DNA from: a virus | Taxonomy: Duplodnaviria; Caudoviricetes | Strand: one strand, 5' to 3' | DNA length: 64,000 nucleotides | Virus record (IMG/VR): IMGVR_UViG_3300020598_000119 | In this document: positions 922 to 64,000 of the stretch, in pieces | How the letters are laid out: every line of letters starts with the position of its first letter | How positions within the stretch are numbered: position 1 is the first letter of the stretch | The notes under the pieces: generated by a model | Database searches by the model: none | What the model saw: only the letters and a program-made list of their open reading frames with translations | Told to the model about the DNA's origin: nothing | Made by a program: the position numbers and the translations under genes

Positions 922-1869
922 TCAGTCGGTGAGATCATTTCGGAGGCGTTCATACGCCTCCTTTATTTTTGGATCGTCACCTGATGGGATTTGAATAGAC
1001 ACTACTGCAATCAGGTCACCTTTCTCAGTGTCATCCGTATTTTTCCGCATTCCCATATCCTTCAACCGGATGCGCCGACCTTGTGGCGTCCCTCTGGGAA
1101 TGTTGAACGTATACCTTTCCCCATCAGGACCATGGACATCTTTTTTCCCACCTAACACCGCTTCCCAGACATCGAGCTTTAAATGCATCTCGATATCCCT
1201 GCCCAAAACCCTGAAACGAGGGTCAGGCTTCAAAGCGATCAGTAGCTCCAGATCCCCTACCACATTATTATCCTGATTAGAGAAGCCGTTTTCGACGACA
1301 AAGCTATCGTCTGCCAAACAACCAGCGGGAAGGTCAATAACCAGCCCTGCACCAGCCTTAGTTCCGAAACCATGGCATTCCAGGCACTTACGCCGTGTCG
1401 TCTTTCCGCTACCCTCGCAGTGCGAACAAACAATCTTGATCTGCAATGGGCCTCTATCTTTATAGGCCGAATTCCCAGTCCCGCCACAATAGGGGCAGGC
1501 GGTCGGCTGCTTCAGTCTGACAAATCCATCTCCATGGCAGGTGTCGCAATGACCGTGTGCATCATCAATTCGGTAGTGAACTCCATTCATTGCCTCATCA
1601 ATCGTCAGATGAATTACTTTTATCGAATTTACCCGTCTCGGAGACGAGCGATATGAATGGGTAGACGGCCGCTCACTTGCTGCAGGTGCTTGATCCAGAT
1701 TTTCAATGAGCTTGCGGTAAGCATCGTTTAACTCCTTGAACTTCCTCTCTAGAGTTAAATCGTGTCGATTGATATCAGGGTGGCACTCCTTCGCTTTTTT
1801 GCGGAAAGCTGCCGTTATTTCTTGCTTGGAGGCACCGGGTTTTACGCCTAATATCTGGTAAGAATCCAT
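922..1869 (-). CDS. DnaJ-class co-chaperone (J domain, Zn finger, C-terminal domain)
   Basis: HPD motif, four CxxCxGxG repeats, C-terminal GDL motif. Confidence 0.9.
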   Translation of the reverse strand: MDSYQILGVKPGASKQEITAAFRKKAKECHPDINRHDLTLERKFKELNDAYRKLIENLDQAPAASERPSTHSYRSSPRRVNSIKVIHLTIDEAMNGVHYRIDDAHGHCDTCHGDGFVRLKQPTACPYCGGTGNSAYKDRGPLQIKIVCSHCEGSGKTTRRKCLECHGFGTKAGAGLVIDLPAGCLADDSFVVENGFSNQDNNVVGDLELLIALKPDPRFRVLGRDIEMHLKLDVWEAVLGGKKDVHGPDGERYTFNIPRGTPQGRRIRLKDMGMRKNTDDTEKGDLIAVVSIQIPSGDDPKIKEAYERLRNDLTD

Positions 1870-16205: not shown

Positions 16206-16967
16206 TCAAGAAGTGAAATTAGCCGCGACGTCGAATTCAGAAAGCGTCGCGGCCATTTTTTGTAGGGCCGCAATCTCAATCTGCCTGACTCGCTCTCGCG
16301 TAACGCCCAAATCGGTAGATATATCTTCCAGAGTGCGCGGAGGCTCGGTTAGTTTTCTCTCGAAAATAACCTTCTGCTCTCTCGGCGTCAGGCCCGACAT
16401 GGCGCGAGCAATTAGACGCTTATATTCTTCTTGAAGCGTCGAGTCGACCATCAGGTCTTCAGGATTCGGGCGCTTATCAGCTATCTTTTCCGAATAAGTC
16501 TGTCCGGTTTCATCTACCGTCGCCTCAAGGGCTACCAGATTATTCGTCGCATTGAATGCAGCGTGAGCCTTTTCTCCTTCCAGTTTACCCATCCTGGATT
16601 CAAGGAAAGCGCGCGATGGTACATAAACTACGTTCATAGTTCTTGATGCGGCATCCGCAACAAAATTCTCTATCCAATAAAAGCAGTATGTTGAGAACTT
16701 CACATTGTAACTGAAATCGAATTTGTCCAGAGCGCGGCAGATACCCAAGCTGCCTTCCTGCGCAAGGTCTCGCATATGCGTTTCATTTTTCGTGTAACGC
16801 GCGGCAAATGAGTAGCAAGAGCGCATATACGCCCGAACTATGCGCTCCTTGGAGCGCTCGTTTTGGTGTTGTTGCCAGTCCTTGATGAGCCTTGTTTCTT
16901 CATCGGGTTTCAACATAGGCTCCGCCAAGGCAGAATCCCGTGAATGTACCAAAATCACTTCCTTCAA
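16206..16967 (-). CDS. RpoH/sigma32-like RNA polymerase sigma factor
   Basis: PML..DEE..L, DLAQEG.LG..RA..KFD, FSTY..YWI, TLEDI...LGVTRERVRQIE..AL. Confidence 0.9.
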   Translation of the reverse strand: MKEVILVHSRDSALAEPMLKPDEETRLIKDWQQHQNERSKERIVRAYMRSCYSFAARYTKNETHMRDLAQEGSLGICRALDKFDFSYNVKFSTYCFYWIENFVADAASRTMNVVYVPSRAFLESRMGKLEGEKAHAAFNATNNLVALEATVDETGQTYSEKIADKRPNPEDLMVDSTLQEEYKRLIARAMSGLTPREQKVIFERKLTEPPRTLEDISTDLGVTRERVRQIEIAALQKMAATLSEFDVAANFTS

Positions 16968-20103: not shown

Positions 20104-20157
20104 ATGTCCGTCACTTTCACAGCACTCAAACGAAAACTTTGGCACTGCGCGTCATAG
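20104..20157 (+). CDS. Putative attenuator leader peptide MSVTFTALKRKLWHCAS (Lys sensor)
   Basis: SD AGGA; AAA-CGA-AAA codons; followed by terminator/antiterminator and two tRNA-Lys genes. Confidence 0.6.
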   Translation: MSVTFTALKRKLWHCAS

Positions 20158-20183
20158 CGGCAGGATATCCGTTCTCTTTGACC

Positions 20184-20211
20184 AGAGCCGCGATGTCCTC
20201 GCGGCTTTTTT
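20184..20211 (+). terminator. Attenuator terminator upstream of the tRNA-Lys pair
   Basis: AGAGCCGCGA-TGTCC-TCGCGGCT followed by a U-tract; 5' arm can alternatively pair with CATAGCGGC (20153-20161). Confidence 0.75.
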
Positions 20212-20294: not shown

Positions 20295-20362
20295 TAACTG
20301 ATTGAAATTTATATCTTTTTTCTATTTTTGTTGTTGACTTGGTTTTTTGGGTATGCCATATA
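20295..20362 (+). promoter_or_regulatory. tRNA promoter cassette P2 (IHF-like site, T-tracts, -35/-10)
   Basis: TAACTGATTGAAA starts 39 bp before TTGACT-N17-CATATA; same layout at the other two tRNA clusters. Confidence 0.7.
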
Positions 20363-20375
20363 TAGATCATCAAAT

Positions 20376-20454
20376 GGACGCGTAGCTGAGTAGGTTTTAG
20401 CGGGGGACTTTTAATCCCCGTCTTACGTGGGTTCGAATCCCACCGCGTTCACCA
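20376..20454 (+). tRNA. tRNA-Lys(TTT)
   Basis: Cloverleaf; anticodon arm GGGGA-CTTTTAA-TCCCC; GTTCGAATC; CCA. Confidence 0.93.
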
Positions 20455-20458
20455 CTAC

Positions 20459-20535
20459 GGACGTATAGCTCAGTTGGTTAGAGCGGCGGTCTCTTAAACC
20501 GCAGGTCCTCGGTTCGAACCCGAGTGCGTCTTCCA
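20459..20535 (+). tRNA. tRNA-Lys(CTT)
   Basis: GCGGT-CTCTTAA-ACCGC; GTTCGAAC; CCA. Confidence 0.93.
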
Positions 20536-27193: not shown

Positions 27194-28021
27194 TTACCCC
27201 GTTACTGCTAGTGCAAACTTTCGTTCCGCGATCACTGGCTCGGCACCATCGACGAGGACATCTGCAAGGTTTTCGATCAACGACAAATTCGGAAGCTGAA
27301 CCTGTTCAACACTGGACCGCTCGATTGGACCAGTCGGACGATGTTTCTCAGGGATGCGAGCCAGCTCTTCGGCTGTCAGTTCTCTCATCACCTTCACGCG
27401 CCTTACGAAAGCGCCGCGCCGGAAATCTTCAGGGAAACCATCAAATTCCAACCCGCGAGCGGACATCATCTCGCGCTGTTCACGGGATGAACGCCCACTA
27501 AGTTCGTTGGGCGAACAGACCGAACGGGCTGCCATGCTGACAGCATTACGACGAGCATCCAGCTCACGCCAAAGGATCGCCTTGGCAGCCAAATCAAGTG
27601 TCGGAAAAGCGATAGCGCGACCGTCAAATGAGGGCAAACGATCACCAATCAGGTCAGGGAACAGTTCAAGGCCCTTCATGAGGAAGTGAGCCGTCACATG
27701 CGCAGCAAAGCGACTGGCCAACTTCTCGTACCGACCACTGCAAGGCAGTTCCTGATCTGGACTATAAAGCAGGAAGCTCATTTCATCTGATTGTGTGTAG
27801 CCGATCCGGCAGTTGAATTCCTCAACCGTAGACTTCGTTGCGTAGATCATCGCCGCTGAAATACGCGCGTCAAATGGCTTCACCGCATTCCGCGTGAACT
27901 TCGAAAAAGAAGCTCCGTCGACACGCACAACCATCGGCTCGCCAATGTTGGCTGCGCGAGCAGAATTCAATTTCTCATATGCCTTGATCTCATCACCAAG
28001 GACGTCGTCTACCTTGCTCAT
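27194..28021 (-). CDS. Thg1-like 3'-5' RNA polymerase (tRNA-His guanylyltransferase family)
   Basis: VRVDG..F.KFT, GYTQSDE, FDGR, WRE.DA.RN. Confidence 0.92.
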   Translation of the reverse strand: MSKVDDVLGDEIKAYEKLNSARAANIGEPMVVRVDGASFSKFTRNAVKPFDARISAAMIYATKSTVEEFNCRIGYTQSDEMSFLLYSPDQELPCSGRYEKLASRFAAHVTAHFLMKGLELFPDLIGDRLPSFDGRAIAFPTLDLAAKAILWRELDARRNAVSMAARSVCSPNELSGRSSREQREMMSARGLEFDGFPEDFRRGAFVRRVKVMRELTAEELARIPEKHRPTGPIERSSVEQVQLPNLSLIENLADVLVDGAEPVIAERKFALAVTG

Positions 28022-28175
28022 CACAATCTCCAAACACGGGCCAGGAAGACCCGTCATAAGCTTTTATTAAATCCCTCGAAAAAATAAAATTGTCAACTTA
28101 ATTGAGCTTGGTTTCTTGCGTTAAAATTCATAATTATTATCAGGCAAAAAATACGAAAAAAGCGAATGAAAGAAA

Positions 28176-30542
28176 ATGAGAAAGCTGATTATAACTCGTG
28201 GCCAGCCTGGTTCTGGCAAATCCCACGCCCTGAAGGCAATCGGAATGGAACAATGGACCCTGTCTGCCGACAATATTCGGTCGACAATCGCCGCCCCATT
28301 TCTGACGAGTGATGGTCAGATGATCGTCAATCAAGAGGTCTCAAGCCGCGCTTTCATGATGCTCAATCAATTCGCAGCCGAACGCATGTCGCGAGGCGAA
28401 ACGCTAGCGATTGACTCGACTCTCATCGAGCGCTCGAACTTGAAGAATTTGGCAGAGATGGCGAAGCCTCATCGCTATGAAATCGCCGTGCTCGACATGT
28501 CGACCATCCCGCTTGAGTTGACGCTCAAGCAAAACAGCGAGCGGCAGGAGATCAATCGAGTTTCTGAATTCAAAATTCGCGAGATGCATGCAAAACTATT
28601 GGAAGCTGGTATTCGAGATGATGTCGATGACGTCACCATCATTTATGGCAAGGAAGACGGTAGCCACATTGCTGAGCTGGATGCGTGGCTGCGTGAGCCT
28701 GTTCATGACTTCAGCGACCGCTACAAAGGCGTAATTCACATTGGCGATCTTCAAGGCTGCTTCACCGTTCTCGCGGGAGAGGGCGGCCCGCTGGCGAATG
28801 GATTTGACGACGACTACAAGTATGTCTTTGTAGGCGACCTGCTTGATCGTGGCATTGAAAACGGCCAGGTGATGCGCTGGTTCGTCGACAATGCTCTCCA
28901 CAGGGAAAACGTCACCCTTCTCTGGGGTAATCACGAAGACCATCTCGACCGCTGGGCGCGTGGTGAAGATGCCACAAGCGGTGAATTCGCCCTCAGAACG
29001 CTTCCGCAGCTTATCAAAGCAGGGATTACTCCTGCAGACGCTGAAGCCGTCTGTCAGAAGGCTAAGGAATTTCTCCAGTACAATTTTAAGGGTGCTGAGG
29101 TTCTCGTTACCCACGCTGGCTTAAGCACATTCCCAGATAAGCCTCATCTAATTTCGCTGTATCAATACTCCCATGGCACGGGCTATTGGGAAGATCCGAT
29201 TGATGAGCAGTTCGAGCGCAACAGCAAGAGAGGCTTCCAAGTTCACGGACACCGCAATCACGGCAACGTCGATATTGCGGCGACCGAACACTCGTTCAAT
29301 CTCGAAGACTCAGTCGAACACGGCGGCAATCTGCGAATTTGCACTCTCGATGGCAATGGCTGGAGCACCAGTGCATTCCGCAACTATGTCTATCGCCCGC
29401 TCAAGGAGCGCCTGGCTCTCGAAACCCAGATCACCGAAGTCAGAAAGGCCCAACGTAAAATGCTGCCTCATTGGATTATCAAGCCTGACGGCAAGTCGAC
29501 GGAAATGGATGCAAGCCTCCTGAAGTCTATGCACGAGCATGAAGGCGTTCGTGAAAAGTCGAGCGAACTTTTCCCGCACATATATTCGCTTAATTTCACT
29601 AAAAAAGTTTTTTACGACCGTTCATGGGATGATGTTGTCGTGAAGGCTCGTGGCCTGTTTATTGAACGAGAGACAAACAAAATCGTTTCTCGTGGCTATG
29701 AAAAATTTTGGAATGTGGGAGAACGTGAAGAAACTGAACTCACTAATCTCGCAAAGAACATGCAATTCCCGATCAGGCTTTACGTGAAATACAATGGCTT
29801 CCTTGGAAATATGGGGTACGACGAAAAAACCGACAGTCTCTTCATCGCCTCAAAATCTATGCCAGAGGGAAAATTTGCAGATTTCTTTAGAGATATTGTC
29901 GCACAACAGCTAACCAGCGTTCAGCAGGAAAAAATACGTCGATATCTTCGCGACACTGAATCGTCGATGACTTGGGAGGTTATTGATCCAGTAAATGACC
30001 CACACATGATCGAATATAACGAACCGAAAATAGTTCTGCTCGACATTATTCGACGTTCTGCGAATTTTGAGAAAGCAAGCTTTGATGTGGTTGAAGCCGT
30101 TGGCCGGAAATTCGGTATCGAAACGAAGAAACTGGCGATGACGTTCCAGAATGCCGCTGCCTTTGCTGGCTGGTACAGGAAGGCGACCACCGACATGAAC
30201 TACCGCGTCGGCGGGGAACATGTGGAAGGCTTGGTGATCGAAGACGCCGCTGGGTATATGACGAAGGTCAAACTGCCATTCTACGCGTTCTGGAAGCAGA
30301 TGCGTGGCGTGAAGGATCGTATCGTTGCATCCCGCGAAAAAGGGACGGAATTCACGTGGTCGCATACGCGGAAACCAGACGGTGGGCAGCCTGATGATAC
30401 TGAGATCGGGCTTGCTCATAGCTTCCGTGATTGGTGTCTGACGCAGGACAGCGACACATTGAAGGCCGATATCATTACTCTTCGCAAGGCTTACGAAGCA
30501 CATCTGGAATTCGGCCAGGACCTATCTGGCCCTTCGCTCTAA
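28176..30542 (+). CDS. Trifunctional RNA repair enzyme: polynucleotide kinase, metallophosphoesterase and Rnl1-type RNA ligase
   Basis: GQPGSGKS P-loop; GDLQG/GDLLDRG/GNHE/HAG/HGH; ligase KYNG (motif I), EGLVI (IV), KVK (V). Confidence 0.88.
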   Translation: MRKLIITRGQPGSGKSHALKAIGMEQWTLSADNIRSTIAAPFLTSDGQMIVNQEVSSRAFMMLNQFAAERMSRGETLAIDSTLIERSNLKNLAEMAKPHRYEIAVLDMSTIPLELTLKQNSERQEINRVSEFKIREMHAKLLEAGIRDDVDDVTIIYGKEDGSHIAELDAWLREPVHDFSDRYKGVIHIGDLQGCFTVLAGEGGPLANGFDDDYKYVFVGDLLDRGIENGQVMRWFVDNALHRENVTLLWGNHEDHLDRWARGEDATSGEFALRTLPQLIKAGITPADAEAVCQKAKEFLQYNFKGAEVLVTHAGLSTFPDKPHLISLYQYSHGTGYWEDPIDEQFERNSKRGFQVHGHRNHGNVDIAATEHSFNLEDSVEHGGNLRICTLDGNGWSTSAFRNYVYRPLKERLALETQITEVRKAQRKMLPHWIIKPDGKSTEMDASLLKSMHEHEGVREKSSELFPHIYSLNFTKKVFYDRSWDDVVVKARGLFIERETNKIVSRGYEKFWNVGEREETELTNLAKNMQFPIRLYVKYNGFLGNMGYDEKTDSLFIASKSMPEGKFADFFRDIVAQQLTSVQQEKIRRYLRDTESSMTWEVIDPVNDPHMIEYNEPKIVLLDIIRRSANFEKASFDVVEAVGRKFGIETKKLAMTFQNAAAFAGWYRKATTDMNYRVGGEHVEGLVIEDAAGYMTKVKLPFYAFWKQMRGVKDRIVASREKGTEFTWSHTRKPDGGQPDDTEIGLAHSFRDWCLTQDSDTLKADIITLRKAYEAHLEFGQDLSGPSL

Positions 30543-37035: not shown

Positions 37036-37335
37036 CTACATCTTCATCGTTGGCGCTTCCTCAATATCTTCAACTTCTGGCTCCCTCCCCATCCATACGG
37101 TAGTGGCCAAAATGCGATCTTCATTGGAAGGATCAAGCGCTTCATTCGAAGCCCAATCCAAAAACTCAGAGTAGCCGCTACCGTGGGGTGGAGGAGGTGC
37201 CGAACGGCCAAACCACTTCGAACTCCGCTTTGCCTCTTGCTTAGGAGCGGATGTAGCCAACGAACGAGACGAAGACGTCATCTCATCGGTATCCTCCGGC
37301 TTAGTTCCAGGTCGTCTAAGTTTAAGCGCCATCAC
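37036..37335 (-). CDS. Small hypothetical protein
   Basis: Coupled to the CCA gene; ends EDIEEAPTMKM. Confidence 0.6.
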   Translation of the reverse strand: MMALKLRRPGTKPEDTDEMTSSSRSLATSAPKQEAKRSSKWFGRSAPPPPHGSGYSEFLDWASNEALDPSNEDRILATTVWMGREPEVEDIEEAPTMKM

Positions 37336-38498
37336 AACCTCCTAGCAGCGGGACCGCCATTCATAATCTCAGTGATCAGTTCCTCTTTTGAGAGCGTAAA
37401 GCCGGAGTCGATCCACTTGACCTTGGCCTCGTTCAGAGCCGCGCCCATGCCAGGACCCTTGTCCACGACACCTACGAGATCACGGCCCTTAAGGGGGAAG
37501 ACCGGAATATCGCCAGCCAACGCCTTTGCGGCCGCGTGAGCGCCAAGCGCAGAAAGAATTGGACAGGCGACAGCAGGATCAAGTCCATTCACTGCCTGAG
37601 TCAGCCAGTAGTGAGGGTCGCACTCAGCTGCAGCGAGGACCTGAGCTGCAGCAACAGCGTCCTTCAGCTCGGCATTCGACAATTTCCAGCGAGTTCCAAG
37701 CTCTTCGGCATAACTCTCATGCCCTGAGAGGATGCCCAACATCACCGATGGCCGCGCGCCGAACTCTCTGGCATCGGAAGCAATCCCGATATGTTCCTCG
37801 TCAATCGGCAGACCAATGACCTGGGCAACGCCCAAGGACGCCATCGGCCGCAGCTGCTTCGTGCCATTCGAATGCTGCAAGACCTTTGATATTTCGCTCC
37901 AGACACGCTCGACCGAGATACCGGAAAGCCCATGAGCGGTATCTTTAATCGCCTGCAGGTCATGCTCGGTCTCTTCGCCACCAAAACGAGCACGAAAACG
38001 AAAGAAGCGCAGGATGCGCAGGTAGTCCTCTTCAATACGCTCGCGCGCATTGCCGACAAATCTTACGCGCCCTTCATTGAGATCCTTCAAGCCGCCAAAA
38101 TAGTCATGCACCTGCCCGTCGAGAGAGGCCGACATCGCGTTGAAGGTGAAATCGCGTCGAGCCGCATCTTCCGCGAAGTCAGTGACATACTCCACAGTTG
38201 CATGACGTCCATCGGTCTCAACGTCTTTCCGGAGCGTCGTGACTTCATAGCCAACGTCCTCATACATGAGGGTGACGGTACCATGTTGCAGACCAGTCGG
38301 AATAACCCGATAGCCCTTACGCTCAGCCAGTTCCATTACGACCTCGGGCAGAGCGTCTGTAGCAAGGTCCATATCTTTCGGTTGCATACCGACAACCATG
38401 TCACGCACGGCACCTCCGACCAGGCGGGACTGAAACCCGCCTGCTGAAAGGAGATGACCAATTGCATGGATGCCACGATCCGTTATGGAGATTTTCAT
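37332..38498 (-). CDS. cca: CCA-adding tRNA nucleotidyltransferase
   Basis: VGGAVRD..DMDLAT, HGT, EVTTLR, RRDFTFNA, EDYLRILR; start after SD GAGG. Confidence 0.93.
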   Translation of the reverse strand: MKISITDRGIHAIGHLLSAGGFQSRLVGGAVRDMVVGMQPKDMDLATDALPEVVMELAERKGYRVIPTGLQHGTVTLMYEDVGYEVTTLRKDVETDGRHATVEYVTDFAEDAARRDFTFNAMSASLDGQVHDYFGGLKDLNEGRVRFVGNARERIEEDYLRILRFFRFRARFGGEETEHDLQAIKDTAHGLSGISVERVWSEISKVLQHSNGTKQLRPMASLGVAQVIGLPIDEEHIGIASDAREFGARPSVMLGILSGHESYAEELGTRWKLSNAELKDAVAAAQVLAAAECDPHYWLTQAVNGLDPAVACPILSALGAHAAAKALAGDIPVFPLKGRDLVGVVDKGPGMGAALNEAKVKWIDSGFTLSKEELITEIMNGGPAARRL

Positions 38499-38569
38499 GT
38501 TCACCTCAAATTGCTTATGTCGAATGTAACCGAACATGACGAAATTACCTACGGCCAAAGATGCGATCC

Positions 38570-38598
38570 TTGACTGAGGCGGCGACATTTACTAAACA
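38570..38598 (+). promoter_or_regulatory. Putative sigma70 promoter P1 of the Glu/Asp leader
   Basis: cTTGACT-N17-TAAACA. Confidence 0.55.
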
Positions 38599-38622: not shown

Positions 38623-38688
38623 ATGAACGGCATGCAGCACATTCTGCGCACTGAAGAACGTCGGGAGGACGATACCACCCGGCGGTAG
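38623..38688 (+). CDS. Putative attenuator leader peptide MNGMQHILRTEERREDDTTRR (Glu/Asp sensor)
   Basis: SD GGAG; GAA GAA..GAG GAC GAT codons match downstream tRNA-Glu(TTC), Glu(CTC) and Asp(GTC). Confidence 0.72.
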   Translation: MNGMQHILRTEERREDDTTRR

Positions 38689-38747
38689 CCGTTTATCGGC
38701 GGCCGTCAAGCACGCGGCCGCTCAAAAAGATATCTGAATTCTTTTTT

Positions 38748-38777
38748 AGGGGTCGCATTTGCGGCCCCTTTTATTTT
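38748..38777 (+). terminator. Attenuator terminator upstream of the Glu/Asp tRNAs
   Basis: AGGGGTCGC-ATTT-GCGGCCCCT-TTTATTTT. Confidence 0.8.
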
Positions 38778-38820
38778 CTAGGTTCAAACCTGAAACCATC
38801 CAACCAGAAAGGAGAAAACG

Positions 38821-38913
38821 ATGCCGAAAGGCGACGACGATAGCGAAGAACGAGAACGTGACGAAACCAAATTGCGAGCGAATTTCAACGAGGCCAAAGG
38901 CAGCGAACGATAG
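38821..38913 (+). CDS. Second short D/E-rich ORF MPKGDDDSEERERDETKLRANFNEAKGSER
   Basis: Strong SD AAGGAG; 10 of 30 codons are Asp/Glu. Confidence 0.5.
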   Translation: MPKGDDDSEERERDETKLRANFNEAKGSER

Positions 38914-38929
38914 CCCATATTCATAAAGC

Positions 38930-38997
38930 TAAGCCTTTGAAATAATTATCTTTTTTTGATTTTAATGGTTGACGCCGATTTTAAGGTGTGTCATATA
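38930..38997 (+). promoter_or_regulatory. tRNA promoter cassette P2
   Basis: TAAGCCTTTGAAA starts 39 bp before TTGACG-N17-CATATA, with T-tracts between. Confidence 0.7.
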
Positions 38998-39055: not shown

Positions 39056-39127
39056 GCCGCCATCTTCTAGTGGTTAGGATGCTGCCCTCTCAAGGCGGTG
39101 ACGCGAGTTCGAACCTCGCTGGCGGTA
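39056..39127 (+). tRNA. tRNA-Glu(CTC), no encoded CCA
   Basis: GCCGCCA/TGGCGGT acceptor; CTGCC-CTCTCAA-GGCGG; one nt separates it from the next tRNA. Confidence 0.9.
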
Positions 39128-39128
39128 C

Positions 39129-39205
39129 GGTGATGTAGCTCAGTGGGTTAGAGCACCTGACTGTCGATCAGGGTGTCGTGGGTTCGAGTCCCATCATTGC
39201 CGCCA
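39129..39205 (+). tRNA. tRNA-Asp(GTC)
   Basis: CCTGA-CTGTCGA-TCAGG; G73; CCA. Confidence 0.92.
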
Positions 39206-39208
39206 CGT

Positions 39209-39283
39209 GTCGCTGTCGTCTAATGGTTAGGACGTCTGATTTTCAATCAGAAAATGGGAGTTCGATTCTCCTCAGCGGTACCA
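39209..39283 (+). tRNA. tRNA-Glu(TTC)
   Basis: TCTGA-TTTTCAA-TCAGA; CCA. Confidence 0.92.
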
Positions 39284-47107: not shown

Positions 47108-47137
47108 TTGACGATTGCGCATCAATCGATGTATATT
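47108..47137 (+). promoter_or_regulatory. Putative sigma70 promoter P1 of the array leader
   Basis: cTTGACG-N18-TATATT. Confidence 0.6.
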
Positions 47138-47176
47138 GTAGAAAGAGCTAAATAGCTCAGGAGAAAAGGTATTCAG

Positions 47177-47299
47177 ATGCATTCCGTGCGCGCTATCGCG
47201 ATTAATACCATCAACGTCACCGCCAATATGGCGGGCGGACGTGGTATTGTCGTGCGCTCAGCACAGAAGGGTGTCGAAGTAGGGATTAACGCGAGGTAG
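47177..47299 (+). CDS. Putative attenuator leader peptide MHSVRAIAINTINVTANMAGGRGIVVRSAQKGVEVGINAR (Ala/Ile/Asn/Thr/Val/Met/Gly sensor)
   Basis: SD-like AGGAG/AAGG; 20 of codons 6-26 are read by tRNAs of the downstream array. Confidence 0.78.
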   Translation: MHSVRAIAINTINVTANMAGGRGIVVRSAQKGVEVGINAR

Positions 47300-47325
47300 C
47301 AAAATCCCCAAGGTTCTGAAGAACC

Positions 47326-47363
47326 AAGGCCCCTTCTGGAAACGGAAGGGGCCTTTTCTTTTT
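47326..47363 (+). terminator. Attenuator terminator upstream of the 14-tRNA array
   Basis: AAGGCCCCTTCTG-GAAA-CGGAAGGGGCCTT-TTCTTTTT; 5' arm complementary to CAGAAGGG (47264-47271) in the leader. Confidence 0.85.
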
Positions 47364-47383: not shown

Positions 47384-47503
47384 ATGGACGACGACGGTAA
47401 CGGGGCGGCGGTCACTCGCCGCAGACACCAAGCACTAACCAAATTTTCGGACGCCTCAAAAGAGGCGAACGGGGAAGTATTGCGCCATAAGTTAAGTCGT
47501 TGA
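47384..47503 (+). CDS. Possible second short ORF MDDDGNGAAVTRRRHQALTKFSDASKEANGEVLRHKLSR
   Basis: Weak SD GGGG; same position as 38821..38913 in the Glu/Asp locus. Confidence 0.35.
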   Translation: MDDDGNGAAVTRRRHQALTKFSDASKEANGEVLRHKLSR

Positions 47504-47560
47504 AATAATTATATTTTTTTGATTTTTGTTGTTGACTTACGTTTTTGGCCAGGCTAACTT
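47493..47560 (+). promoter_or_regulatory. tRNA promoter cassette P2
   Basis: TAAGTCGTTGAAA starts 39 bp before TTGACT-N17-TAACTT, with T-tracts between. Confidence 0.7.
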
Positions 47561-47602: not shown

Positions 47603-47631
47603 GCTCTCAACCGAGGGCATGTTCTTTGACA
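47603..47631 (+). promoter_or_regulatory. rrn-like boxB-boxA antitermination element
   Basis: Hairpin GCTCTC-AACC-GAGGGC followed by TGTTCTTTGACA (cf. boxA TGCTCTTTAACA). Confidence 0.55.
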
Positions 47632-47732: not shown

Positions 47733-47808
47733 TTGGGTGTAGCTCAGTTGGTAGAGCGCCTGGCTGTTAACCAGGTTGTCGCAGGTTCGAACCCTGCCAT
47801 CCAAGCCA
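47733..47808 (+). tRNA. tRNA-Asn(GTT)
   Basis: CCTGG-CTGTTAA-CCAGG; G73; CCA. Confidence 0.93.
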
Positions 47809-47871
47809 ATTTTCACTTCAGGTAAACCTGAAAGCTCGCGGATATTGATTGTCGCGGCGAGCGAGGAATTC

Positions 47872-47948
47872 GCGTCCTTAGCTCAGCTGGTAGTAGCGTC
47901 TCCTTTACACGGAGAATGTCGGCGGTTCGATCCCGTCAGGACGCACCA
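47872..47948 (+). tRNA. tRNA-Val(TAC)
   Basis: TCTCC-TTTACAC-GGAGA; CCA. Confidence 0.93.
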
Positions 47949-47972
47949 AATTGCAATTGAGAGGAGATGGAA

Positions 47973-48128
47973 ATGCAAAGAAATGAGGCTTCGGCAGGAC
48001 GTAAATCGGGTGAAAAGCTCGTTCGTGCATGTCCAGTTAGTGTTCTAAAACAGCCAGTTAGGAAGTTTGAAGATACATTTAGCGCCGAGAATGTCGTTCT
48101 TGAGAAATTCTTCTCGCGCAACATATGA
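47973..48128 (+). CDS. Small 51-aa ORF inside the tRNA array
   Basis: SD GAGGAG 6 nt before ATG; MQRNEASAG...EKFFSRNI. Confidence 0.4.
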   Translation: MQRNEASAGRKSGEKLVRACPVSVLKQPVRKFEDTFSAENVVLEKFFSRNI

Positions 48129-48154
48129 TCTATGACATTTGAATGTCGATAATT

Positions 48155-48229
48155 GCGGGTATAACTCAGTGGTAGAGTGTCACCTTGCCAAGGTGAAAGT
48201 CGAGAGTTCGAATCTCTTTGCCCGCTCCA
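48155..48229 (+). tRNA. tRNA-Gly(GCC)
   Basis: TCACC-TTGCCAA-GGTGA; U73; CCA. Confidence 0.94.
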
Positions 48230-48290
48230 CGAATTGCCTTCCGAACTGGTCCTTGACGGGCGGCGATTTGAGAAACAACATCAGGACTAT

Positions 48291-48366
48291 GGGGAATTAG
48301 CTCAGCTGGGAGAGCGCGTGCTTTGCAAGCATGAGGTCATCGGTTCGAACCCGATATTCTCCACCA
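48291..48366 (+). tRNA. tRNA-Ala(TGC)
   Basis: G3:U70; CGTGC-TTTGCAA-GCATG; CCA. Confidence 0.94.
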
Positions 48367-48487
48367 GAATTTGTAGCTCATTAATGGGCGAGGGAGCGAC
48401 ATGCCTTAAGGGCGGCTCAACGTAATTATGCGAGGAATCTATCAGGTACGCCGGAGAAAGTTCCACGGTTGGGGGCAGATTACAAAT

Positions 48488-48561
48488 GCGGGTGTAGCTC
48501 AATGGTAGAGCAGTAGCCTTCCAAGCTGATGACGAGGGTTCGATTCCCTTCACCCGCTCCA
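48488..48561 (+). tRNA. tRNA-Gly(TCC)
   Basis: TAGC-CTTCCAA-GCTG; U73; CCA. Confidence 0.93.
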
Positions 48562-48602
48562 TCTAATTCACTGAATTTGACGTTTAAATACGTCATACGA
48601 AA

Positions 48603-48678
48603 CGCGGAATAGAGCAGTGGTAGCTCGTCGGGGTCATGACCCGAAGGTCGCAGGGTTCGATTCCCTCTTCCGCAACCA
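48603..48678 (+). tRNA. Initiator-type tRNA-fMet(CAT), variant 1
   Basis: C1:A72 mismatch; TCGGG-GTCATGA-CCCGA; bulged T stem. Confidence 0.82.
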
Positions 48679-48833
48679 ATGTCGGCCTCAGCCGAGTGTC
48701 GACATCTTTCTCTCCCGTGAGGGGTGCGAGATGCCCTCTAATTATCAAAGGGCTACCGTGCTCAGAATGGCCTAGACTTTCGGGGCGTGGAGAGTAACGT
48801 CTACAGAATTTGCCGGAAAGGCAGTCAAGTTAT

Positions 48834-48911
48834 CGCGGAGTGGAGCAGCCAGGTCAGCTCGCTAGGCTCATAACCTTGAGGTCATCGGTTCGAATCCGAT
48901 CTCCGCAACCA
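48834..48911 (+). tRNA. Initiator-type tRNA-fMet(CAT), variant 2
   Basis: C1:A72; GAGC/GCTC D stem; CTAGG-CTCATAA-CCTTG. Confidence 0.85.
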
Positions 48912-49110
48912 GCTTGGGAAATCGCGAGTAAAGTAGCCCTGCGGCGGTTCGAAACGTTTGCGCAGTGTGTGAAATGATAAGCGGTTTCCCATCCTTAAAG
49001 AAGATGGCGCATTGATTGCGACGTCGACAAACAGCGGCATTCGTTGCCGTGTAGAGGCCCGTAATGATCACCACGGATGTACTGGGATCAATCAGGCCTC
49101 GAACCCTTTT

Positions 49111-49187
49111 GGCGGGATAGAGCAGCCAGGTAGCTCGTCAGGTTCATAACCTGAAGGCCGTAGGTTCAAATCCTACTCCCGCAACCA
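49111..49187 (+). tRNA. Initiator-type tRNA-fMet(CAT), variant 3
   Basis: G1:A72 mismatch; TCAGG-TTCATAA-CCTGA; GTTCAAATC. Confidence 0.87.
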
Positions 49188-49216
49188 GTAAGATGCGAGA
49201 AAACATCAAGAAATTC

Positions 49217-49312
49217 ACTGCCGGATGCTCCAACTGGGTTGGGGAGAATCCATAATATGACCTGGGCGCGGCCTGTCGGTCACAAGGTAGGTTCGATTCC
49301 TGCACGGCGGTA
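49217..49312 (+). ncRNA. tRNA-like RNA without a canonical anticodon arm
   Basis: ACTGCCG/CGGCGGT acceptor-like stem, long D-like hairpin, long extra hairpin, T arm GTAGG-TTCGATT-CCTGC; no CCA. Confidence 0.5.
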
Positions 49313-49329
49313 AAGTCATTCACTCATAT

Positions 49330-49405
<76 letters not shown>

Positions 49406-49621
49406 TATTCCGCGATGAAGCGCCACTATCGGCGATCTCGCATCATTTCTGTCGAAGGCCCAATCGATGGGCAGCCACCAGAGGATTCCGTGAGGAACTC
49501 GGCCGATGAAATCTAGCCCCTCACCAGGGCGGCGAGATCATCAAATGGTCAGTGGGGTGGAAGGTAGCGAAAAAGGAGCTGTGGTGGCTCTTGGTGCAAA
49601 TCCCGCTCGGCAGGCCAATTC

Positions 49622-49696
49622 GGGTTCGTAGTTTAGTGGTAGAACATCGCCTTGACATGGCGAAGGTCGCAAGTTCGATCCTTGCCGAACCCACCA
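49622..49696 (+). tRNA. tRNA-Val(GAC)
   Basis: TCGCC-TTGACAT-GGCGA; CCA. Confidence 0.93.
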
Positions 49697-49712
49697 CGAA
49701 GTTTAACAGTTT

Positions 49713-49787
49713 GCGCGCATAGCTCAGTGGTAGAGCACTCCGCTGATAACGGAGAGGTCGGAAGTTCAACCCTTCCTGCACGCACCA
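49713..49787 (+). tRNA. tRNA-Ile(GAT) copy 1
   Basis: CTCCG-CTGATAA-CGGAG; CCA. Confidence 0.92.
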
Positions 49788-49795
49788 GAATTGAT

Positions 49796-49870
49796 GTCAG
49801 TGTAGCTCAGCGGGAGAGCGCGCGCTTGATAAGCGTGATGTCGCAAGTTCGATCCTTGCCATTGACACCA
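49796..49870 (+). tRNA. tRNA-Ile(GAT) copy 2 (divergent body)
   Basis: CGCGC-TTGATAA-GCGTG; CCA. Confidence 0.9.
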
Positions 49871-49884
49871 GTTATCATAGTTTT

Positions 49885-49960
49885 GGCAGTATAGCTCAGT
49901 TGGTAGAGCGGCGGACTCATAAGCCGTAGGTCGATAGTTCAATCCTATCTACTGCCACCA
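49885..49960 (+). tRNA. Elongator tRNA-Met(CAT) (Ile2 not excluded)
   Basis: Paired G1:C72; GCGGA-CTCATAA-GCCGT; CCA. Confidence 0.85.
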
Positions 49961-49987
49961 AAACATCGTTTCCATTAATGTTGAGAT

Positions 49988-50062
49988 GCTGCAGTAACTC
50001 AGTGGTAGAGTACCTTCTTGGTAAGGAGGAAGCCGAGAGTTCGATCCTCTCCTGCAGCACCA
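49988..50062 (+). tRNA. tRNA-Thr(GGT)
   Basis: CCTTC-TTGGTAA-GGAGG; CCA. Confidence 0.93.
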
Positions 50063-63361: not shown

Positions 63362-63952
63362 TTACTGTTTGAACGTCGCAGAGGGAGGGGACGGCAATTG
63401 CAGATATTTCTTGTCAAATTTCTCACAGAGGATTTCACCGTTTTCGGCATGCAAGAATTCATGTCCCTCGTTAGCCAGTGCAACGGCGTCGACTTCGATG
63501 ACCATGGGTCCAGGACCAGGTCGGGCCTCTGCGATTTCTAAAGCACGCTCAAATGTATCCACCAACCGAATGAAGTGCTTCTTTGACAAAGTAAGGCCAT
63601 GTTCCTCGATCTGATCCCGTGCTTCCTCCGTCGTTCCGAAATAGAGCATCCCCGTAGGCACATATCGCTCATATCCCAAATCGACTTCAAATGAGTGGCC
63701 AGAGAGCGCCCGAATTTCCAATCCATTCTCGCTCAGAGCGAAACGTGTCTTATGAGGGTCATTGAGAGCCTCTTCAATATGAACCCGATCCAGCTTTCCG
63801 TCGAACGCCTTCAATCCATTCAGGTAGTTAATAACAGAGTCGACTGACACAAAACCGTTACGATCAATGGAGAGCACACCATCAGGATTGTGTCGGAGCA
63901 AGCGCGAGAGACTTTTAGTGATCAGAGGCAACGGAAATCCATTGTGTTCCAT
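63362..63952 (-). CDS. kptA: Tpt1/KptA RNA 2'-phosphotransferase family protein
   Basis: S.LLRH, K.RF, IRA.SGHS; NAD-domain HGT is FGT; start may lie further upstream (window edge). Confidence 0.8.
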   Translation of the reverse strand: MEHNGFPLPLITKSLSRLLRHNPDGVLSIDRNGFVSVDSVINYLNGLKAFDGKLDRVHIEEALNDPHKTRFALSENGLEIRALSGHSFEVDLGYERYVPTGMLYFGTTEEARDQIEEHGLTLSKKHFIRLVDTFERALEIAEARPGPGPMVIEVDAVALANEGHEFLHAENGEILCEKFDKKYLQLPSPPSATFKQ

Positions 63953-64000
63953 AAAAATAGCTCCAAGCGACATTGCCGGAGCCATTTCTATCACGAGCAT

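Follow-up and report, generated by a model that had tools for sequence, protein, structure and literature searches.

How might the transcription of a large set of transfer RNA (tRNA) genes be matched to the demand for the tRNAs that they encode? The question is raised by a short unit at positions 47108-47363 of a 64,000-nucleotide (nt) stretch of DNA (IMG/VR virus record IMGVR_UViG_3300020598_000119; hereafter the window, to whose positions all coordinates refer unless another record is named), downstream of which lies an array of 14 tRNA genes. We put a probability of about 0.68 on this unit being a ribosome-mediated (leader-peptide) transcription attenuator that senses how fast the codons served by the downstream tRNA genes are decoded. 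It has the complete anatomy of such a device, namely a promoter, a Shine-Dalgarno site, a short open reading frame (ORF), a terminator, and an alternative pairing that overlaps the 5′ arm of the terminator; the codons of the ORF match the array, and anatomy and match both recur in relatives. The switch that these parts would form is plausible but unproven. The features from which the argument starts are the following.

47108-47137, + strand: predicted promoter P1 of the leader transcript, sigma-70-like, with TTGACG, an 18-nt spacer, and TATATT (consensus scan, 10/12 matches).
47166-47170, + strand: Shine-Dalgarno site AAAGG, 6 nt 5′ of the ATG, read from the sequence.
47177-47299, + strand: leader ORF of 40 codons (MHSVRAIAINTINVTANMAGGRGIVVRSAQKGVEVGINAR), with its ATG at 47177 and stop codon TAG at 47297-47299.
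47192-47254, + strand: regulatory run, leader codons 6-26 (21 codons, 20 of them read by the array), the sole maximum in six frames.
47326-47363, + strand: intrinsic terminator with a 13-pair G+C-rich stem, a GAAA loop, and a T run (sequence scan and fold).
47733-50062, + strand: array of 14 tRNA genes (ARAGORN and Rfam), in the order Asn GTT, Val TAC, Gly GCC, Ala TGC, Gly TCC, three CAT, Ala GGC, Val GAC, two Ile GAT, CAT, and Thr GGT.

Codons 6-26 of the leader are GCT ATC GCG ATT AAT ACC ATC AAC GTC ACC GCC AAT ATG GCG GGC GGA CGT GGT ATT GTC GTG. Under standard wobble rules the array tRNAs read 20 of these 21, the sole exception being CGT, and each of the ten elongator anticodons of the array has a cognate codon in the run, seven amino acids being spanned; both Thr codons are ACC. 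Over the whole leader, the array reads 29 of the 39 codons that follow the start (binomial, 9e-6). An earlier, sequence-only reading of this locus had listed the same codons and had claimed that 20 of the 21 were array-read, that all elongator anticodons were covered, and that both Thr codons matched the Thr GGT tRNA; the codons were identical on re-reading, and the wobble rules together with the ARAGORN predictions bore out the matches. The odds of such a run, which that reading had left to be computed, are small: in 31 long ORFs of the window, 39.2% of codons belong to the array's set, and against this background the probability of at least 20 matches in 21 is 9.7e-8 (binomial), with ~0.012 such 21-codon windows expected over six frames. 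Among all 127,870 21-codon windows in the six frames, eight had at least 18 matches, all of them inside the leader ORF, and exactly one, starting at 47192, had 20. The run score of the leader was 18, and that of the runner-up among 1,028 short ORFs of the window was 9.

The same arrangement was found repeated in a cultured bacterium. The leader region was present at 99% identity on contig 2 of the nearest genome, that of Mesorhizobium sp. SP-1A, and only there among 41 genomes from the nearest genus and other genera of the order. We read 280 kb of this contig, which revealed a nearly identical island with 45 tRNA genes in seven clusters spread over ~130 kb. Since ~44 of the 92 tRNA matches in the SP-1A genome fall within the island, its set is supernumerary; the island tRNAs read 60 of 61 sense codons, ATA alone being not visibly covered. 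Upstream of all seven clusters stood a small ORF with its Shine-Dalgarno site and a terminator, with a purine-rich site 6-7 nt before the start codon in 7/7 leaders (an additional AGGAG lies at 47160-47164, upstream of the leader ATG in the window). The clusters and their leader runs were as follows.

Cluster A: Phe GAA, two Arg ACG, and Arg CCG; leader run CGT CGG CGA TTT.
Cluster B: Tyr, five Leu, two Pro, Ser GGA, and His; leader run LPHLPHLLPLPYL.
Cluster C: four Ser and three Gln; leader run QSSQQQSSQSSSSSS (also given as MFAQSSQQQSSQSSSSSSN), with codons TCG, TCC, TCA, AGC, AGT, CAA, and CAG.
Cluster D: Trp, Thr CGT, Thr TGT, Cys, and Arg TCT; leader run ACG AGA ACG ACA TGG ACA TGT TGG AGA.
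Cluster E: two Lys; leader LKRKL.
Cluster F: Glu and Asp; leader EERREDD.
Cluster G: the 14-tRNA array at 47733-50062; leader codons 6-26 (47192-47254).

To compare leaders with clusters, we scored the three forward frames over 650 nt upstream of each cluster against all seven codon sets, with no choice of ORF. The diagonal of the resulting 7 × 7 table was its unique maximum (1/5040 permutations). The cognate run is long in B, C, D, and G, each of which individually stood far above every off-diagonal value, and short in A, E, and F. Upstream of 22 chromosomal tRNA loci of the host, examined as a control, there were no cognate runs. The window itself holds two further clusters, Lys-Lys at 20376-20535 and Glu-Asp-Glu at 39056-39283, each with an upstream promoter, a small ORF, and a terminator; their leader units are:

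20104-20211, + strand: sister unit (E) before tRNA Lys(TTT)-Lys(CTT), with leader MSVTFTALKRKLWHCAS and terminator.
38623-38779, + strand: sister unit (F) before tRNA Glu-Asp-Glu, with leader MNGMQHILRTEERREDDTTRR and terminator.

A second, more distant element was reached through a blastn search with the region from the leader to P2 (a second promoter, described below), which gave no phage match and one short plasmid match. The latter led to pRlX5, a 1.32 Mb plasmid of Rhizobium leguminosarum TP16 whose DnaE-like polymerase is 55% identical to that of the island. Its first 350 kb hold 52 tRNA genes in the same seven clusters, each with a leader and terminator, and an intrinsic terminator was thus present in 14/14 leaders examined across the two elements. 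The 7 × 7 comparison gave 2/5040 permutations in pRlX5, where the leaders, labeled A2 to G2 by cluster, read:

A2: ...MRRFR...GRFSLRRRMA
B2: ...AHLPLPLHLLPLPYC...
C2: ...AQQQQSSQSSSSSSI...
D2: MSRTTTTTWTCWRH...
E2: ...NRLKRKT...
F2: ...AAEREEDI...
G2: MHRFVTNAGNNATAAIMAGGVAACVVAEGDGG

In E2, an added AGG codon in the leader goes with an added tRNA-Arg(CCT) in the cluster. Synonymous choices of Thr and Arg codons likewise followed the anticodons present: Thr is ACC in G-type leaders (tRNA GGT) and ACG or ACA in D-type leaders (tRNAs CGT and TGT; Fisher 0.011), while Arg is CGN in A-type and AGR in D-type leaders (Fisher 0.0095), homologous pairs being pooled in both tests and not fully independent. 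The sister leaders of the window are weak matches when taken alone, the Glu/Asp leader having 5/20 cognate codons and the Lys leader, with 2 Lys codons, not being significant; pRlX5 retains both LKRK and ERE(E)D, the latter being shared by five metagenomic relatives.

Two side observations concern the leaders. CGN Arg codons break the cognate runs in the Lys leader (AAA CGA AAA, 20128-20136), the Glu/Asp leader (GAA GAA CGT CGG GAG, 38653-38673), and the large-array leader (GGA CGT GGT, 47249-47257), and the interrupting Arg is kept among relatives as LKRK, ERE, and GGRG; these leaders may share an ancestor, or the decoding of Arg may be a second input. In addition, the first half of the B2 leader (MFAGINNAGMVGGANSVVAARVAAGA, record positions ~249500-249700, upstream of tRNA-Tyr) consists of nearly all large-array codons (Ala, Gly, Val, Ile, Asn, and Met; run score 18) and precedes the HLPLPLHLLPLPY run; it may be a double sensor or reflect the GC richness of the sequence.

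Between the terminator and the first tRNA gene of the G array lie two more features, both of which recur in relatives:

47384-47503, + strand: second small ORF (ORF2), MDDDGNGAAVT..., on read-through transcripts.
47500-47560, + strand: predicted promoter P2, a conserved module with a T-rich upstream element, TTGACT (47532-47537), 17 nt, and TAACTT (47555-47560).

The P2-type module spans ~70 nt and has the form TAAG-N3-TTGAAATAATTAT-T run-ATTTT-N5-TTGAC-N17-CATATA or TAACTT. It is found at 47500-47560, 38937-38995, and 20300-20365, within the window only before tRNA clusters, and aligns across clusters A, F, G and pRlX5. The strict form of this pattern had no match in genome or viral contigs, and a looser core matched in metagenomes. 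Exact matches to the core were located in 78 contigs (76 metagenomic, 2 viral), with tRNA genes just downstream in 22 of the 78 and G-type arrays in 5 of these 22; leader, terminator, second ORF, and promoter module were present in 5/5. ORF2 begins with ATG GAC GAC GAC GG in the window, a start motif that is conserved in pRlX5 and the five metagenomic relatives, and a promoter-like site was seen by eye at the place of P1 in pRlX5 and metagenomic relatives. In ~10 of the contigs with the P2 core, some of them from gut metagenomes, a tRNA-Lys(TTT) gene lay exactly 47 nt downstream. The CCA-adding enzyme of the element, used as an alternative marker, returned five distant loci with no tRNA genes nearby and was uninformative.

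Across these sources, the seven distinct G-type peptides diverge widely (e.g., MSRFVANVGNANVTAIMAGGVAV..., MAFFVAKIATINTAAANVAGGVNGM..., and MLLLKGTIATTNNAATIKVAGVAGM...) and retain an array-like composition, with best-run scores of 11-20 in the seven lineages. Such retention of composition under drifting sequence is expected of a codon sensor and speaks against a functional peptide. The codons ACG ACG appeared inside the run only in the G-type relative whose array has a tRNA-Thr(CGT). The attenuator reading is well supported, at the level of sequence comparison, by this replication and by the synonymous-codon specificity.

We then considered whether the RNA could act as a switch. The leader RNA fold was much stabler than those of shuffled sequences (z = -7.3), and the predicted elements, besides the terminator, were:

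47186-47263, + strand: long hairpin within the coding region, its 5′ arm in codons 4-15 and its 3′ arm in codons 17-27 (minimum free energy [MFE] and centroid folds).
47264-47275, + strand: antiterminator 5′ strand, CAGAAGGGTGTC, codons 30-33 (predicted pairing with 47328-47338).
47282-47309, + strand: inner hairpin 1, GGGATT...AATCCC, across the stop codon (MFE and centroid folds).
47312-47325, + strand: inner hairpin 2, GGTTC TGAA GAACC (MFE and centroid folds).

The coding-region hairpin is a candidate pause or '1:2' structure, and its apical CCGCC/GGCGG stem is kept in 7/7 G-type leaders. Within the antiterminator strand, CAGAAGGG (47264-47271) is complementary to CCCTTCTG (47331-47338) in the 5′ arm of the terminator. 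We folded RNA truncated just past this arm at equilibrium, with a ribosome footprint masked at each codon in turn. In the truncated G leader, CAGAAGGGUGUC (47264-47275) paired with GGCCCCUUCUG, enclosing the two small hairpins (47282-47309 and 47312-47325); the terminator 5′ arm was paired with a probability of 0.91 in the naked truncated RNA, of at least 0.9 for most stalls in codons 2-27 (minimum 0.72), and of ~0.7 with a ribosome over codons 29-40. These models support an antiterminator formed by CAGAAGGG and CCCUUCUG whose formation ribosomes late in the ORF would prevent; one positioned at the stop codon, moreover, would lie between the strands and be expected to obstruct the helix sterically. 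In the masked folds of leaders A, C, D, and C2, arm pairing peaked for stalls early in or just before the run and dropped with a later ribosome or one at the stop codon, and a free-energy measure gave its highest value with the ribosome stalled mid-run in A, A2, B, B2, C2, D, and G.

The antiterminator duplex of the window has an energy of -17.8 kcal/mol, which 13 of 500 shuffles reached, and all 7 G-type leaders have, within their last 15 codons, a stretch that can pair with their own terminator arm (-16 to -20 kcal/mol). A changed arm goes with a changed partner in two lineages: the pair is CAGAAGGG/CCCUUCUG in the window, GGGAGAGGG/CCCUCUCC in relative L119, and GGAGGG/CCCUCC elsewhere. Because a MAFFT alignment of the seven leaders misaligned the antiterminator strand, cognate and non-cognate duplex energies were compared instead, and 96 of 5040 permutations matched or beat the cognate assignment of arms to partners. 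The G2 leader of pRlX5 has the same topology in other sequences, with CGGAGGG/CCCUCCG as the long helix, a stop-codon hairpin GGAGGC...ACUCC in the same place as inner hairpin 1, and GGTTCGGTAAGACCGAA as the counterpart of inner hairpin 2. The self-pairing of the coding region, the complementarity of CAGAAGGG to the terminator arm, and the GGGATT/AATCCC helix over the stop codon had all been picked out in the sequence-only reading and are present in the predicted folds. Folding under a ribosome mask, which it had suggested in cotranscriptional form, gave a divided answer, as the antiterminator formed in truncated G RNA while these are equilibrium calculations and the full-length RNA always folded as the terminator.

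From these parts we infer a switch, the direction in which it works, and how much of array transcription it accounts for relative to P2. RNA polymerase would start at P1, and a ribosome would translate the 40-codon leader. On reaching the last third of the ORF, the ribosome would cover CAGAAGGG (codons 30-32) or sit between the strands, allowing the terminator at 47326-47363 to form and the transcript to end. Were the ribosome to lag in codons 6-26, where charged Ala, Ile, Asn, Thr(ACC), Val, Gly, or Met tRNA ran short, CAGAAGGGUGUC would instead pair with the terminator 5′ arm, and polymerase would continue via ORF2 and P2 into the 14-tRNA array. With seven sensors, each tuned to its own cluster, only the limiting group of tRNAs would be topped up.

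The arrangement of promoters differs among the clusters. A P2-type module lies between terminator and tRNAs in clusters A, E, F, and G, with a second small ORF in between in A, F, and G. The leaders of B, C, and D are themselves driven by a P2-type promoter; in C and D of both elements, no second promoter is present and the first tRNA directly follows the terminator, which makes read-through the only visible route to those tRNAs.

Several points weigh against the attenuator as the control of the G array. The terminator is not the sole gate to the array, since the conserved and strong-looking P2 lies downstream of it; the presence of P2 and ORF2 between terminator and first tRNA makes the attenuator only one of two inputs, the distance between terminator and first tRNA is 370 nt, and the array could be fully expressed from P2 without read-through. 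Full-length leaders folded at equilibrium under the ribosome mask always favored the terminator in A, B, C, and G, so that any switch must be kinetic, and the masked folds of B, E, F, B2, and D2 were flat, with little or no signal. As the leader is G-rich and the terminator arm C-rich, complementarity is cheap: shuffles of the G-rich region did equally well in 3% (window) to 57% (pRlX5) of trials, which leaves the exact helix unproven. The leaders of A, E, and F were not individually significant in the codon comparison. Stalling would also follow amino-acid starvation, in which extra tRNA is useless, and this bears on the physiological signal that we have presumed. The core of the attenuator account given in the sequence-only reading was replicated across clusters and relatives, but that account had passed over P2 (47500-47560) and ORF2 (47384-47503).

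In a different account, the sensor is real and its output is not transcription of the array; either the leader RNA or peptide would act in trans, or read-through would modulate P2, the true array promoter, by transcriptional interference. P2 shows stronger conservation than the leader, and its upstream element is of the kind characteristic of stable-RNA promoters. Yet clusters C and D of both elements have no P2, their terminators abut the tRNAs so that the output must be read-through, and the G leader is of the same build. Action in trans would suit the unusual degree of structure in the leader RNA, and it has a precedent in a related rhizobium: the trp attenuator of Sinorhizobium is reported to yield a trans-acting RNA, rnTrpL, and a peptide, peTrpL (PMC6614838, PMC7298713). 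Against this, the peptide sequence is not conserved among G-type relatives, and a trans role would add to control in cis rather than replace it. On balance, we consider this account unlikely.

We think it quite improbable that the leader and terminator are a relic, that is, an ancestral attenuator made redundant by insertion of the P2 module and now neutral in A, E, F, and G. The ORF2-P2 module does resemble a duplicated cassette common to A, (E), F, and G, and the A, E, and F leaders have only short runs; however, the G-type run is still long in seven lineages with very different peptides, pRlX5 with its distant polymerase among them, and the terminator, together with its complementary strand, likewise persists with co-variation. 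Decay would be expected of a neutral relic, and the long run that has been kept counts against this explanation. Finally, a small hydrophobic protein or a structured RNA gene unrelated to tRNAs, with the codon match a side effect of Ala/Gly/Val/Ile-rich composition, is very improbable: the array codon set takes in as much as 39% of codons, A, G, V, and I abound in small membrane peptides, and Rfam matches are weak only (see below), but Asn and Thr(ACC) also occur in the run, all ten anticodons are represented there, the window has no other ORF or frame that approaches it, its sequence drifts while its composition stays, and thirteen more leaders in two elements, with compositions as different as Ser/Gln, Trp/Thr/Cys/Arg, and Leu/Pro/His/Tyr, each match their own cluster.

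Returning to the attenuator, the G leader may also respond to failed initiation. Three of the four CAT tRNAs of the array have a 1:72 mismatch, as in bacterial initiators. The sequence-only reading had proposed that naked leader RNA is in the ON state, so that loss of the initiator (formyl-Met, fMet) tRNA would cause read-through and thus explain three fMet genes. The predicted antiterminator agrees with this proposal at the level of equilibrium folding. In naked RNA, the antiterminator probability was 0.91 for G, 0.86 for G2, 0.76 for F, and 0.27-0.66 for the other eleven leaders, the antiterminator being favored in untranslated RNA by 8.4 (G) and 4.4 (G2) kcal/mol. A caveat is that the start-codon region, which is transcribed earlier, pairs with CAGAAGG in the full-length fold. 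Taken together, these models are consistent with read-through at the G leader upon failed initiation. In the fourth CAT tRNA (49885-49960), the G1-C72 pair is normal and the anticodon stem has an A.G mismatch at its base; this tRNA could be an elongator Met or a lysidine-modified Ile tRNA.

Downstream of P2 and a small hairpin (47603-47618), one more site was read from the sequence:

47620-47631, + strand: boxA-like TGTTCTTTGACA.

A boxA-like TGTTGTTTGACA occupies the same place after P2 of pRlX5; such a site would be expected if the long untranslated array were subject to antitermination of the ribosomal RNA type. The second small ORFs share the motif ATG(C)GACGACGACGG, read in different frames (47384-47503; 38821-38913; and ~1650-1710, minus strand, of contig L003), which gives MRRRRR in A (Arg/Phe), an Asp/Glu-rich peptide in F (MPDDDSDDTDERDEERE in relatives), and MDDDGNG in G. 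The second ORFs of A and F are also in cognate codons, and in pRlX5 the Arg/Phe second ORF continues through the T-rich promoter element, which is read as Phe codons. A sigma-70-family factor (regions 2 and 4) is encoded at 16206-16967, minus strand, and could read the P2-type promoters; in pRlX5, a gene recognized by eye from its translation as sigma-factor-like lies directly upstream of the Lys leader.

The element that carries these units is a very large mobile or accessory region of rhizobia, placed on a bacterial chromosome contig in Mesorhizobium and on a 1.3-Mb plasmid in Rhizobium, both from cultured strains. Terminase_6N and HK97-type capsid searches gave no match in the island region, though the element may still derive from a divergent phage. 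Pfam and PHROG matches identified replication and repair genes (a DnaE-like polymerase, an epsilon-like exonuclease, RecA, RecD2, two UvrD-type helicases, MutL, and an SbcCD-like pair) as well as thymidylate synthase, the sigma-70-family factor, PBP1A, DnaJ, and a zeta toxin. There is also a set of genes for RNA-end repair and tRNA maturation, comprising a Thg1-like protein, a kinase-phosphatase-RNA-ligase fusion (phosphoesterase and T4-type ligase), a CCA-adding enzyme, and a Tpt1/KptA 2′-phosphotransferase; in the window, this set occupies 27194-28057, 28176-30542, 37332-38588, and 63362-64000. The repair genes together with a full spare tRNA set suggest an investment in tRNA integrity. Tentatively, the parts could be joined into a self-regulating spare decoding system, a possibility that we hold well below even odds: seven attenuators would monitor 60 of 61 sense codons, each switching on its operon when the corresponding codons were read slowly (e.g., through anticodon nucleases or tRNA damage), alongside the element's own tRNA repair enzymes, and the G leader, being ON when untranslated, would report failed initiation, hence the initiator genes there.

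Leader-peptide attenuation is textbook for amino-acid operons. The enterobacterial leaders of this kind (thrL for Thr and Ile; ilvL for Ile, Leu, and Val; trpL, hisL, leuL, and pheL) are like the G unit in having a promoter, a short ORF with regulatory codons, a terminator, and an alternative pairing over the terminator 5′ arm. Nearest within the class are thrL and ilvL, in which several amino acids are sensed by one leader. Those leaders control biosynthetic enzymes, whereas here the targets are tRNA genes; the present run, unlike theirs, is matched to anticodons including the synonymous choice, across seven amino acids and ten anticodons, and the G unit has a second ORF and second promoter after its terminator. 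Untranslated trp leader RNA super-attenuates, while read-through is predicted for the G leader. The Rfam model Thr_leader (RF00506) gave a weak full-length match of 27.9 bits (E = 0.004-0.05), and membership was rejected given the gathering threshold of 55, the likeness being in architecture only; PyrG leader and small-RNA models were rejected as well, with sub-threshold matches on the terminator alone.

T-box riboswitches are similar in that they sense the state of one specific tRNA and choose between termination and read-through, but they bind uncharged tRNA directly without translation, control aminoacyl-tRNA synthetase or amino-acid genes, and occur mainly in Firmicutes; the Rfam search of leader and window gave no T-box match. 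In function, the closest counterpart is the trn operon of Anabaena sp. PCC 7120, a horizontally spread set of extra tRNAs on a large plasmid that is silent by default, induced when translation is impaired, and co-regulated with an RNA ligase for tRNA repair (PMC8421152; PMC10272220). The present element likewise has RNA ligase, kinase, and phosphatase functions, a Thg1-like protein, a CCA-adding enzyme, and Tpt1. In Anabaena, the repressor TrcR binds direct repeats and exerts control at the promoter (PMC8421152), whereas here there are seven operons, each with a codon-matched leader; leader-type control of the Anabaena array was rejected, as it is repressor-controlled and leader, attenuation, and terminator are not mentioned in PMC8421152. 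Full-text literature searches found no published description of leader-peptide control of tRNA genes. The class of mechanism is known and its target, tRNA genes, new.

If the attenuator reading is true, the cell or the element would gauge its decoding capacity codon by codon and answer with the matching tRNAs, a direct feedback on tRNA supply, and this would explain why the supernumerary tRNA genes are grouped by amino acid and isoacceptor. The finding also links to the question of how mobile elements and phages cope with tRNA-cleaving defenses. With instances in two cultured, harmless, and genetically tractable rhizobia, Mesorhizobium sp. SP-1A and R. leguminosarum TP16, it is directly testable.

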